Virus record (IMG/VR): IMGVR_UViG_3300027608_000013
Strand: one strand, 5' to 3'
Origin: a virus
DNA: 64,000 bases
The position numbers were made by a program, and so were the translations under genes. Shown here piece by piece: positions 32,309 to 36,539 of the stretch (positions are counted from its first letter, which is position 1; the number at the start of each line of letters is the position of its first letter). The notes under the pieces are model-generated. The model was given only the letters and a program-made list of their open reading frames with translations. It had not been told where the DNA came from and did no database searches.

Positions 32309-33472
32309 ATGGCTAAAAGCAAAAGTAAGTCAGAACTGGAAGATGCACTAGCAAACACCCTGGCAGACAGTATTAACAAACAATTTAAAGGTCAAGCACT
32401 TAAAACTGCATTCTTTTTAGATGGTGATGATGATTCGCCAAGCAATGTTAAAGAATGGGTTTCATCCGGGTGTGACTCACTTGATTTAGCAATATCAAAC
32501 CGCCCTAATGGAGGATTTCCTGTCGGCCGGATTACTGAAATTACTGGTTTAGAAGCATCTGGGAAATCATTATTAGCATCACATACTTTAGCAGAAACAC
32601 AGAAAAAAGGTGGCTTAGCAGTTTATATTGATACCGAATCAGCAACAAGTAGTGAATTTTTACAAGCAATTGGCGTTGATTTAAAAACCATGTTGTATGT
32701 ACCGTTAGAAACAATTGAAGAAATATTTGAAACTATTGAAACAATTGTTGAAGGGGTTAGAAAATCAAATAAAGATCGACTAGTTACAATCGTAGTAGAT
32801 TCAATAATGGGGGCATCAACTAAAATTGAAATGGCTGCTGAATATGATAAAGATGGATATGCAACAAGTAAATCTATCATTTTATCAAAAGCAATGCGTA
32901 AAGTTACCAATTGGATTGCTAGAGAAAATATTTGTTTGATATTTACCAATCAGCTTCGTACAAAACTAGGTGTGTCATTTGGTGACCAATGGACAACATC
33001 TGGTGGTAAAGCAATTCCATTCCATGCATCTGTCAGATTGCGTATTAAAAACACCGGAATGATTAAAGCAAAAATTAATGGTATTGAACAAGTGGTAGGA
33101 AGTAAAACTGAAGTTCAAGTTGTTAAGAATCGTATGGGACCGCCACATCGCAAAGTAAACTATGAAATCTACTATGACAGTGGTATTGACAATTACGGTG
33201 GTTGGTTAGAAACTATGAAGAAATTTGATCTAGTTAAACAATCCGGAGCACATTACACATTGGAAGATGTTGATACAGAAACTGGCGAAGTATTTAGCGA
33301 AATTAAATTTCAATCAAAGAACTTTATTGATAAAGTAATTTCCAAACCAGAAATCAAAGCAAGGTTATATCAAAGAATTTGCGATGCTTATATATTCAAA
33401 TATCAAGCCGGAATCGATGGCGGAATTGATGATGTAATTATCACCGATGAAGTTTACGACGAAGAAGGGTAG
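32309..33472 (+). CDS. recA: RecA/UvsX recombinase
   Basis: GRITEITGLEASGKS, YIDTE, VVDS, FTNQLR, TSGGKAIPFHASVR, VVKNR. Confidence 0.93.
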   Translation: MAKSKSKSELEDALANTLADSINKQFKGQALKTAFFLDGDDDSPSNVKEWVSSGCDSLDLAISNRPNGGFPVGRITEITGLEASGKSLLASHTLAETQKKGGLAVYIDTESATSSEFLQAIGVDLKTMLYVPLETIEEIFETIETIVEGVRKSNKDRLVTIVVDSIMGASTKIEMAAEYDKDGYATSKSIILSKAMRKVTNWIARENICLIFTNQLRTKLGVSFGDQWTTSGGKAIPFHASVRLRIKNTGMIKAKINGIEQVVGSKTEVQVVKNRMGPPHRKVNYEIYYDSGIDNYGGWLETMKKFDLVKQSGAHYTLEDVDTETGEVFSEIKFQSKNFIDKVISKPEIKARLYQRICDAYIFKYQAGIDGGIDDVIITDEVYDEEG

Positions 33473-33491: not shown

Positions 33492-34091
33492 ATGAATTAC
33501 CAAAGAATACATGATGCCATTATTGATAGAGCTCGCACAAGAATGTTGCTAGGCTACTGCGAACGGCATCATGTTATTCCTAGGTGTTTAGGTGGAAATG
33601 ATGCAATTGGAAATATAGTCAAATTAACAGCTCGAGAACATTTTATAGTTCATAAACTGTTGTGTGAAATTTATCCTAATGAAACTAAATTAGTTTATGC
33701 ATATTGGATGATGTCTAGAAATGTTTCAAATTCTAAATATAAACGAGAGTATCGGGTATCAAATAGAGATTATGAACGATCGAAACAGTTATTCAGTGAA
33801 GTATCTAGTTTTAGACAAAAAGGTAAAACATTATCTGATGCACACAAACAAAAACTTCAAATCGCAGCAAAAACAAGAAAAACTAGAATTCCAATAAAAC
33901 ATTCAGAAAAAACAAAAGAAAAATTAAGTGCCATATGGAAAGGAACAACTAGATCAATTGAAGATAGACAGAAAATATCTGCAGGTCAACGTGGCAAAAA
34001 ACATAAAATAATAAAATGCCCATATTGTAACATTGAAGGTGGAAATCGAACGATGAAACGATGGCATTTTGATAAATGTAAAAATAAATAA
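33492..34091 (+). mobile_element. Free-standing HNH homing endonuclease (Mob-like) with NUMOD3-type repeats
   Basis: ERHHVIPRCLGG.D...NIVKLTAREHFIVHKLL; KHSEKTKEKLS repeats; C-terminal CPYC...RWHFDKC. Confidence 0.88.
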
Positions 34092-34094
34092 ATT

Positions 34095-35147
34095 ATGAAT
34101 AAATATCAAGAATTGTTTAACAAATTAAAAGAAGACCGTGCCGTCAACACCGATGTGAATGATCATATCATGGTGTTTGACGGCCTTTAGCTTAACACAT
34201 TCATACGTAGCTTTGGCGCTTCCCCATCATATAATGAAGATGGCGACCATGTAGGCGGCATAACTGGATTTTTATATTCAGTTGGAAAAACGATTAGAGA
34301 TTTTAAACCTAGTCGTTGCGTTATTGTTTTTGATGGTAGAGGAGGCTCTGCAAAAAGAAAACGCATTTACAGTGATTATAAAGGCAATAGGGCCAATAAA
34401 ACAAAGCTTCGGCGTCACGACCACCATGAATCTACTATAGAAGAAGAACAAGAATCAATGCGTCATCAATTTTCTCGATTGATTTCATATCTAGATAATT
34501 TGCCTATTACGTTTATTTCAATGGATGGTATTGAAGCAGATGATACAATTGCATACATAACTAATATGTATCAAGATATCAGTAAAAAGATGACTGTGGT
34601 ATCTACGGATAGAGATTTTTATCAATTGATTTGTCCTACATTGCAAGTATGGTCTCCAATCAAAAAGAAAATGTATGATGAAGCTGCATTAATTGAAGAA
34701 TTTGGAGTTCATCCTGCAAATTATGTAGTATATCGTACTTTTACGGGCGATGCTTCTGATAATATTCCAGGTGTTGACGGATTTGGACCAAAGACTATCT
34801 TAAAGACATTTCCAGAACTTGTTAGCAGCAAAGAATTTACGTTGCAAGATTTACAAAATAAATGTAAATTGTTAACTGAATCAAAAAATCATCAAAAAGT
34901 TCTTGCTAACTATGACACTATTGATAAAAATTATCGATTAATGAACATAAAACTTTTAGATATTCCAGCTCAAACCTCAACTAAAATACGAGGAATATTA
35001 AATGAACCAATTCCGTCACTTAATCGAGCAGAATTCCAACGCTTATTTTATGAAGATAAGATGTGGTCTATAATGAAGAATTTGCCAGATTGGCTAAACA
35101 ATACTTGGCTTTCTTTGAATGCATTTGCAAAACAAACACAACATTAA
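34095..35147 (+). CDS. 5'-3' exonuclease / flap endonuclease (T4 RNase H, Pol I N-terminal family) interrupted by in-frame TAG at 34188-34190
   Basis: Reading from ATG 34095: ...HIMVFDGL*LNTFIRSF...VIVFDGRGGSAKRKRIYSDYKGNR...EADDTIAY...STDRDF...GDASDNIPGV.GFGPKT. The ORF track shows only the 3' part (34458). Confidence 0.85.
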
Positions 35148-35183: not shown

Positions 35184-36539
35184 ATGACAGACAAATTATC
35201 CGAGTATGGCTATGGCTTTCAAGTAAAAGTTATAGCTGCAATGTTTACGGATAGAGCATTTTTACAACAAATTGCAGATATCATTCAACCAGAATATTTT
35301 GACTCAGACTCAAATATTTGGTTATTAGAAATTATAATAGCCCACTTCCGCGAATATAAAACGCCACCTTCTAAAGATGTACTTAAAGTAAAAGTAACAG
35401 AAATTAGTGATGACGTTTTAAAAACTGCAATATTAGAGCAATTAAAAGAAGTATTCAGATTTATGGAATCTGATGATCTTTCCTTTGTTAAAGATGAAAT
35501 ACTTAAGTTTTGCAAAAATCAAGAAATTAAACAAGCAATTATGGATTCGGTAGGATTACTTAAAATGGGTAATTACGATGAAATAAAAACTAAGATTGAT
35601 AGTGCAATGAAAGCCGGTGCTGATACCAATATTGGATTAGATTATAAAGCAAATATTTCAGCTCGATATGCAGAATCGTCTAGACATACAATTACTACCG
35701 GGTGGGATGTTGTTGATGATTTAATGGATGGCGGATTAGCTCGAGGAGAATTAGGTGTTGTAATGGCACCTGCAGGTATTGGCAAATCTTGGATGCTTAT
35801 CAATATTGGAGCAAATGCAATGAGGGCTGGACATACCGTTATACATTATACATTGGAGCTCAATGAAAATTATGTAGGCCAACGCTATGATTCCGTATTA
35901 ACAGGTATTAACGCCCAAACATTGAAACATCATCAGGATACGGTTCAAGAAAAAATGAATTCATTGCGAGGTGATTTGATTGTAAAATATTTTCCAACCA
36001 AGTCAGTTGGTATAATGGGATTAAAGGCCCATCTAGAAAAAACAATCATGTTAGGTAAAAATCCAACATTAGTAATTGTAGATTACGGTGACTTGTTGAA
36101 GATCAATACTAAAAAGGACAAGCACGAAGCCTTAGAAGAACTATACGAGGAGTTACGTGGTATGGCAGGGGAATATGATATCCCGGTATGGACTGCATCA
36201 CAAGCAGGTAGATCTGCATTAGAAGAGGATGTTATTGAAGCTGATAAAATTGCATCATCATATGGAAAAGTAATGGTTGCCGATTTTTTAATGTCACTTT
36301 CTAGAAAGGTTGAAGATAAGATGTCAGGTACGGGTAGAGGCCATGTTATTAAAAATAGATTCGGCCCCGATGGTATTACATTACCTAGTAAAATTAATAC
36401 AAACAATGGTCAATTTCAATTCTTTGAGCCACAGACAACTCAAGGTAAACAAACTACTCAGGTAATGAAAACCGGTGAAAATTTAATTAAGAAAAATTTA
36501 GCTCAAAAGTTTAAAGATCTGGGTGGAACATTAGGATAA
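35184..36539 (+). CDS. Replicative DnaB-like helicase (gp41)
   Basis: APAGIGKS, HYTLEL, IVDYGDLL, WTASQ, KNRFGPDG. Confidence 0.92.
   Translation: MTDKLSEYGYGFQVKVIAAMFTDRAFLQQIADIIQPEYFDSDSNIWLLEIIIAHFREYKTPPSKDVLKVKVTEISDDVLKTAILEQLKEVFRFMESDDLSFVKDEILKFCKNQEIKQAIMDSVGLLKMGNYDEIKTKIDSAMKAGADTNIGLDYKANISARYAESSRHTITTGWDVVDDLMDGGLARGELGVVMAPAGIGKSWMLINIGANAMRAGHTVIHYTLELNENYVGQRYDSVLTGINAQTLKHHQDTVQEKMNSLRGDLIVKYFPTKSVGIMGLKAHLEKTIMLGKNPTLVIVDYGDLLKINTKKDKHEALEELYEELRGMAGEYDIPVWTASQAGRSALEEDVIEADKIASSYGKVMVADFLMSLSRKVEDKMSGTGRGHVIKNRFGPDGITLPSKINTNNGQFQFFEPQTTQGKQTTQVMKTGENLIKKNLAQKFKDLGGTLG

Follow-up and report, generated by a model that had tools for sequence, protein, structure and literature searches.

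Natural programmed bypassing in bacteria and phages rests essentially on gene 60 of phage T4 and its homologues, in which gaps of 20–50 nucleotides (nt) are skipped. The gene 60 bypass and the MobA element were reportedly described by Huang in 1988 and by Bonocora in 2011. Bypass cassettes linked to HNH genes, and a 5′ stem-loop acting as the forward driver, have been treated in two reports (Manning & Atkins, bioRxiv 2022.08.31.505936; Wills et al., bioRxiv 2024.12.09.627546). Here we analyze a candidate for a far shorter bypass element, a 6-nt insert carrying an in-frame stop codon, in the gene for a 5′-3′ exonuclease (flap endonuclease, FEN) of a virus. The gene lies on a stretch of 64,000 nt from the IMG/VR record IMGVR_UViG_3300027608_000013, hereafter called the window.

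Three further systems bear on this site. In prfB, the gene of RF2, a programmed +1 frameshift takes place at CUU UGA C: peptidyl-tRNA-Leu leaves its CUU in the forward direction when the A site contains a stop that is poorly recognised and has a C after it, and an element just 5′ of the site helps. The mitochondrial bypass elements ('byps') of Magnusiomyces capitatus are 27–55 nt long. A synthetic Leu-stop-Leu construct is said to have had the sequence CUU UAG CUA, which is nearly the natural sequence of the FEN site. In E. coli reporters, synthetic stop-hops that read 9 nt as a single residue have been described (Weiss et al. 1987; O'Connor et al. 1989; reviewed in PMC5009743); according to the review, in-frame stop-hopping had been shown with synthetic constructs only, and no natural example is known (PMC5009743). 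For the byps of Magnusiomyces capitatus mitochondria, take-off and landing codons need to match at only two of three positions (PMC5009743). Our literature searches found neither a published natural stop-hop nor a report of this FEN site.

A first-pass annotation, made from the DNA letters alone, had described a FEN frame (34095–35147), preceded by an HNH open reading frame (ORF; 33492–34091), that is broken by a single TAG, keeps its downstream catalytic motifs and is the only interrupted gene of the window. All of this held on closer inspection. The sole in-frame stop of the FEN frame is the TAG at 34188–34190, in the context GAC GGC CTT TAG CTT AAC ACA TTC ATA CGT, and the motifs VFDG, YKGNR, EADD, DRD and GDASDNIPG are all present. 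Five single-stop splits of long same-frame stretches in the window proved to be ordinary gene boundaries at TAA. The next in-frame ATG, GTG or TTG is at 34458, 270 nt 3′ of the TAG. The parts of the site are as follows:

34095–35147, + strand: FEN (5′-3′ exonuclease) frame, matched by PF02739 (E 1.5e-29) and PF01367 (E 5.2e-10) across the stop
34095–34187, + strand: FEN coding segment 1, 31 codons, the last being the putative take-off codon; probable cassette-borne replacement 5′ end
34140–34184, + strand: predicted RNA hairpin of 45 nt, 19 base pairs (bp) and tetraloop AUGA, its 3′ end abutting the take-off codon
34185–34187, + strand: putative take-off codon CTT (Leu), CTN in all unique insert-bearing alleles
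34188–34190, + strand: in-frame stop TAG, the proposed slow-to-decode A-site codon, a stop in 38 of 38 matching FEN stretches
34191–34193, + strand: putative landing codon CTT (Leu), CTN in all unique insert-bearing alleles
34191–35147, + strand: FEN coding segment 2, 317 codons plus stop, carrying all remaining catalytic motifs

We propose that CTTTAG (34185–34190) is a short coding gap that is skipped in translation. Peptidyl-tRNA-Leu would be held on CUU (34185–87) in the P site with the slow-to-decode UAG in the A site, would pass over the UAG and would land on the CUU at 34191–93; decoding would then resume at AAC, so that 9 nt specify one Leu. The product would be a FEN of 348 amino acids (aa) with a normal DGLNTFIR motif and the junction peptide ...IMVFDGLNTFIR. 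The force for the forward movement probably comes from the hairpin re-forming as mRNA exits the ribosome, a role already suggested for the 5′ stem-loop in gene 60 of T4. The gap would have come in as part of a mobile cassette that also brought the gene of the HNH homing endonuclease and a replacement for the 5′ end of FEN. We consider it likely that the site supports a programmed hop of peptidyl-tRNA-Leu over the stop and represents a minimal version of the bypass known from T4 gene 60/MobA. The sequences themselves show the insert and its conservation, the association with the HNH gene, selection on FEN, the rules for the codons and the predicted hairpin; from these we infer the hop, how efficient it is, the hairpin as its driver and the protection against the HNH enzyme discussed below.

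The site shares with T4 gene 60 and MobA an HNH homing-endonuclease gene directly upstream and a spread across divergent phages. Like the 'HomR' segment of MobA, the replacement 5′ end of the cassette is slightly shorter than the parental one and is followed by the gap. A take-off codon matched by the landing codon, a stop directly after the take-off codon and a stem-loop 5′ of take-off are found at gene 60 as well, and in both cases the loop lies 26 nt upstream of take-off. Unlike gene 60, the FEN gap measures 6 nt instead of 20–50 nt, leaving no room for a stem-loop at the A site and take-off codon, and no Shine–Dalgarno (SD)-like arrestor is evident: no SD-like element was found 5′ of the landing site, where the preceding GACGGC does not resemble one. 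The hairpin abuts the take-off codon here, whereas it stands 9 nt upstream in gene 60; the codon is Leu CUN instead of Gly or Asp, and the host gene encodes FEN instead of topoisomerase II. The HNH gene belongs to a different family from MobA, its DNA resembling the mobD-type homing-endonuclease genes of T-even phages. Many FEN lineages keep the gap without the endonuclease, again unlike gene 60 and MobA, and bypassing at FEN is predicted from comparing genomes.

The synthetic stop-hops were engineered, unstimulated and inefficient, whereas the FEN site is natural, is conserved across a large phage family and comes with a conserved 5′ hairpin. Like the byps, it would be a short insert in an essential gene that is made harmless at translation; in the byps, however, the A site holds a sense codon that is unused, the mitochondrial system is a relaxed one, and there is no connection with homing endonucleases. 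The proposed movement differs from that of prfB in being +6 to a non-overlapping codon with a hairpin, as against +1 to an overlapping codon with SD:anti-SD pairing.

The insert itself is well documented. The identical GGC CTT TAG CTT recurs in about 15 distinct alleles, which come from 13 or more independently assembled metagenomes, so the insert is real, and we take it to be neither an assembly error, a possibility that the first-pass annotation had left to be excluded, nor a fresh mutation. The close insert-bearing FENs are 73–92% identical to that of the window downstream of the stop; one of them (L069) departs from the others in having CTG as landing codon and GGA as the preceding Gly codon, which is GGC in the other close insert-bearing alleles. 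The hexamer TAGCTT occurs twice in the window, 20 nt apart, at 34188–34193 and at 34208–34213 (within CGT AGC TTT); the repeat is probably a coincidence, the second copy being unconserved in other insert-bearing alleles.

Removal of 6 nt restores exactly what the uninterrupted genes encode. Around 35 distinct uninterrupted close relatives read FDG-LNTFIR with no additional residues, and the DGLNTFIR obtained by deleting the 6 nt, as had been predicted from the window alone, equals their consensus; the insert is for this reason far beyond chance. No homologue natively has two extra residues at this place. The only apparent case, P0035 with 'LQL', was rejected, for its DNA has TAG and the gene caller had translated TAG as Q. 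With the 6 nt skipped, FEN aligns without gaps to residues 13–27 of the Taq enzyme (D18..R25) and has a D-to-R spacing of seven, which read-through would lengthen to nine. We take Asp18 of Taq to be a catalytic metal ligand.

Public gene calls treat the site inconsistently. An example is L053:314–1381 (ENA ERZ28593909); one record translates the TAG as Gln, and P0018 and P0102, database proteins of 323 aa, look like truncated calls. Sites of this kind are therefore hidden or mis-annotated in databases.

The codons at the site follow two rules. We tallied them over 33 unique insert-bearing alleles belonging to 12 or more FEN lineages, with identities as low as 37%. The take-off codon is CTT in 27, CTC in three and CTG in three; the stop is TAG in 21, TGA in eight and TAA in four; and the landing codon is CTT in 16, CTG in seven, CTC in seven and CTA in three. 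With YTN permitted on both flanks, the scan turned up neither TTA nor TTG. These TTR codons make up 33–74% of the Leu codons in the same genes, more than half in 11 of 12 lineages, and are used at this very Leu site by 23 of 33 close uninterrupted alleles; the probability of such avoidance is about 1e-10 over the 12 lineages. Because no TTR is seen while third positions drift freely, synonymous changes from CTR to TTR appear to be excluded. Likewise, a scan that allowed any middle codon found no sense codon between the flanks, and all 38 matching FEN stretches had a stop there. Both rules are predicted by a hop, since the hopping tRNA must re-pair, and a sense codon would be read at normal speed, inserting two residues; read-through accounts for neither rule.

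A hairpin is predicted directly upstream. At 34140–34184 the RNA is predicted to fold with −25 to −27 kcal/mol (z −3.7), the structure ending at the base before the take-off codon and its loop lying 26 nt upstream of take-off. One insert-bearing lineage (L009) shows two compensatory double changes and a wobble change in the hairpin, and another (L053) a further wobble change. The presence of G-U pairs assigns the hairpin to the sense strand. We compared, by group, the predicted folds of the 51 nt before the take-off position. The means were −24.2 kcal/mol and z −5.2 for close insert-bearing alleles (n = 6), −15.0 kcal/mol and z −3.1 for close uninterrupted ones (n = 23), −18.7 kcal/mol and z −4.4 for distant insert-bearing ones (n = 16), and −7.4 kcal/mol and z −0.44 for distant uninterrupted ones (n = 70); the two distant groups differ with a Mann–Whitney p of 6e-9. 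Every distant insert-bearing lineage has an equivalent predicted hairpin of unrelated sequence, with 14–21 bp, a 3′ end 0–9 nt from take-off and a loop 22–32 nt upstream.

Synonymous differences tell of the same region. Over the 30 codons ahead of the stop, synonymous divergence (pS) amounts to 0.10, a fivefold stronger conservation than in the HNH gene that the cassette carries (0.49), and just past the landing codon it reaches 0.75; the low value before the stop points to a constraint at the RNA level. The close uninterrupted alleles have a covarying 16-bp hairpin in the 38 nt before the Leu codon (e.g., L003:3158–3195), which is absent from distant uninterrupted FENs. Covariation was assessed with a manual structure on the uninterrupted set together with per-sequence folds, RNAalifold having mis-registered the outer stem on mixed alleles that differ by a one-codon indel. 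In this structure 93.8% of cells are paired and 18 cells are changed on both sides, and none of 500 shuffles was as good; its many G-U pairs place it, too, on the sense strand. In the uninterrupted alleles the hairpin may be left over from an earlier insert-bearing state, may serve in regulation, or may have been there beforehand and have made the site permissive.

Several points speak against a hop. Synthetic stop-hops without stimulators are only about 1% efficient. In the close family the hairpin is not exclusive to gap-bearing alleles, as the uninterrupted ones have a weaker (−15 kcal/mol), covarying version. Under strict wobble no single tRNA reads both members of the pairs CUU to CUG or CUA and CUG to CUC, and re-pairing at two of three positions must therefore be assumed. 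A C right after a stop weakens termination, and part of the CTN rule fits read-through equally well. The gaps found are only of 6 nt, with no frame-changing version to rule read-through out. The alleles are also linked by descent and transfer, so the counts overstate their independence.

Read-through of the stop by a near-cognate or suppressor tRNA would give a FEN of 350 aa with an extra L-X after the catalytic Asp-Gly, possibly limiting the nuclease. The frame is unchanged across the stop, the C that follows it is a weak termination context, and one gene caller did read the TAG as Q; because every gap is 6 nt long, we grant this explanation a small share of the probability, while judging it unlikely. 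Against a suppressor tRNA or a reassigned code stand the use of all three stop codons at the site, the absence of any tRNA gene from the 64-kb window, and the ordinary role of TAG, which terminates five of the 66 ORFs of the window including the adjacent recA-like gene. Were the longer protein functional, changes from stop to sense would be neutral or better, but none was seen in 38 FEN stretches. The two additional residues would also alter a D-to-R spacing that is common to Taq and all uninterrupted relatives. Known stimulators of read-through lie 3′ of the stop, and read-through leaves both the invariable extra CTN Leu codon and the 5′ hairpin unexplained.

A variable-gap scan over 5–24 nt in the close family found the 6-nt version only, and a sample of 80 diverse FEN loci held a single 5-nt gap, in a distant FEN (L161:2440–2520; IMGVR_UViG_3300031787_000289) that reads GAC GGA TTG TAG TG AAT. 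This gap changes the frame, and a hop of +5 from UUG to GUG would restore it. Because a near-identical sister (L163) is uninterrupted and no hairpin lies upstream, it is perhaps a plain mutation or sequencing error, and we set it aside as evidence for bypassing.

The genes around the site help to explain how the insert could have spread. The window is a segment of freshwater phage DNA with 34% GC and every gene on the + strand, and translation with code 11 gives a dense, unbroken gene map. The protein encoded by the FEN frame matches Taq, DNA polymerase I (Pol I), Xni, T5 FEN and others in the PDB. The gene order RecA-FEN-DnaB is kept in all relatives, and the neighbours of FEN in the window are:

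32309–33472, + strand: RecA/UvsX-like recombinase gene (PF00154, E 2.4e-54), the upstream backbone gene, with an ordinary TAG terminator
33492–34091, + strand: free-standing HNH/NUMOD3 homing-endonuclease gene, 199 aa (phrog_655 'homing endonuclease', E 2.8e-49; NUMOD3), the putative mobile part of the cassette
35184–36539, + strand: DnaB-like replicative helicase gene (PF03796), the downstream backbone gene, in conserved synteny

The first-pass annotation had expected the insert to go together with the HNH gene. In the close family this was borne out: all 15 insert-bearing alleles have this HNH gene or a decayed remnant of it between recA and FEN, as against one (L023) of about 33 insert-free alleles. 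It did not extend to the distant relatives, many lineages of which keep the insert without an adjacent HNH gene. The HNH copies beside close insert-bearing FENs share 66–90% identity. In close uninterrupted alleles recA directly adjoins FEN, save in L023, L025 and L026. The first of these has an intact HNH gene of the same family (L023:2559–3260; 74% identity) next to an uninterrupted FEN with the variant DGLNAFIR, so the insert is not the sole possible state beside the HNH gene; the other two have a different HNH gene (47% identity) in the recA-FEN gap and no insert (L025:2214–2870 and L026:3348–4000). The three could represent alternative immunity or different target specificities. The HNH genes of three insert-bearing alleles have decayed, with an in-frame stop replacing Trp (L029) or Arg (L057) or with a frameshift (L069), next to intact FENs; this is the expected decay phase in the life cycle of a homing endonuclease.

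On a tree of the FEN region downstream of the stop, the insert-bearing alleles of the close family fall in at least seven places among uninterrupted ones. The 90 nt 5′ of the stop are near-invariant among insert-bearing alleles, and synonymous sites vary freely from the second codon past the landing codon onwards; the change from one to the other places the boundary of the cassette at the insert. L069 has CTTTAG inside flanks of the recipient type (GGA / CTG AAT ACC). The FEN 5′ end of the cassette is one codon shorter than in uninterrupted alleles, and its specific N-terminus (…KLKEERAVN-TDVNDHIMVFDGL) is conserved, which might reflect either a nascent-peptide signal for take-off or the hairpin that the same stretch encodes, the two being inseparable here. 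The insert probably breaks the target site of the HNH enzyme, and immunity to this nuclease is suggested by the linkage and by the position of the cassette boundary at the insert. Further HNH-like genes (36–50% identity) lie upstream of recA or between FEN and dnaB (L002:1021–1464, L013:93–635 and L036:4997–5482), and the replication module appears to be a hotspot of homing endonucleases.

A looser search pattern yielded 16 further unique insert-bearing alleles (about 26 loci) from much more distant phages, whose FEN and RecA are 37–49% and 44–66% identical to those of the window and whose recA-FEN-dnaB order is the same. All 16 read DG-CTN-stop-CTN-NTFIR at exactly the position of the window. 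Pattern matches in non-FEN genes were discarded (L054, L059, L062, L071, L072, L075, L078, L083, L100, L101, L105, L110 and L194–L196). In most distant insert-bearing lineages recA lies directly beside FEN without an HNH gene; the insert thus appears to outlive the endonuclease. On a broad FEN tree the insert-bearing alleles fill at least 12 lineages, and one clade is, in our sample, composed of insert-bearing alleles only, with both TAG and TAA; the CTT-TAA-CTC version is found in L091 and L093. A search of the GenBank phage collection found no cultured phage above 41% FEN identity, and the two top hits inspected, Microcystis phage Mel-JY01 and an Immutovirus, are uninterrupted. Mel-JY01 and the Flavobacterium Immutovirus phages are the nearest isolates.

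The gene looks functional. All 13 complete close insert-bearing alleles have an intact frame of 954–969 nt after the stop. The ratio of nonsynonymous to synonymous substitution rates (dN/dS) past the TAG is 0.04–0.09 in insert-bearing pairs, which include the close sisters L009/L055 and L061/L077, and is the same in uninterrupted pairs; the relaxed selection that the first-pass annotation had named as a possible objection was not found. The comparisons of homologues, of linkage and of selection that this annotation had proposed thus all favoured its stop-hop reading. Over the close insert-bearing sister pairs and the clades that are entirely insert-bearing and HNH-less, dN/dS spans 0.03–0.11. 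Two such HNH-less clades show 41 synonymous against six nonsynonymous differences (L084/L090) and 68 against 40 (L091/L109). FEN downstream of the stop is under strong purifying selection.

These data bear on the idea that the insert is a tolerated knock-out made by a selfish HNH cassette, with host Pol I covering for the lost enzyme and the frame looking healthy through recent invasion or recombination. T4 RNase H is dispensable in the laboratory, the scatter of insert-bearing among uninterrupted alleles on the tree shows frequent transfer, and, with the cassette boundary right at the insert, the 3′ part is recipient DNA. The low dN/dS argues otherwise, both in the close insert-bearing sisters and in the HNH-less clades made up of insert-bearing alleles. 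No second lesion was found in any insert-bearing allele, while HNH genes on the same contigs decay; the stop changes only to other stops; the hairpin and the CTN codons are conserved at synonymous sites; and the insert persists across lineages as far as 37% FEN identity. A knock-out is on this evidence decidedly improbable.

A reassigned code (stop-codon recoding is reported to be widespread in some phage groups; bioRxiv 2021.08.26.457843), re-initiation after termination, with FEN made in two pieces or lacking its N-terminus, excision of the 6 nt from the RNA and an assembly artefact have, even taken together, only a very slight chance of being right, given the dense gene map under code 11 with TAG ending five genes, the lack of an in-frame start for 270 nt past a stop whose next codon varies between CTT, CTC, CTA and CTG, the loss of the first catalytic Asp from a truncated protein, the lack of any homopolymer or intron-like feature in the 6 nt, and the identity of the insert in at least 13 independent assemblies. 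A scan for promoters and terminators, which might have revealed an internal start or terminator, gave nothing exceeding the shuffled expectation.

If the programmed hop is real, bypassing would need no more than codons for take-off and landing, a stop between them and a single hairpin on the 5′ side, and the FEN site would be a minimal natural system for the idea that pairing of the exiting mRNA drives forward movement. It would also mean that a homing endonuclease is able to break up the site it recognises within an active-site motif and leave the gene alive. On the practical side, genes of this kind come out of gene callers as truncated, as pseudogenes or as signs of an alternative code. For the phages themselves, we lean towards the view that a large aquatic family with RecA-FEN-DnaB synteny, relatives of the Flavobacterium Immutovirus phages and of Microcystis phage Mel-JY01, expresses FEN by a programmed, hairpin-driven 6-nt stop-hop. 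This would be the first natural case, and no smaller bypass element is known; homing endonucleases would have seeded it, and after their loss it would have been kept for long periods as standing immunity or as a throttle on expression.

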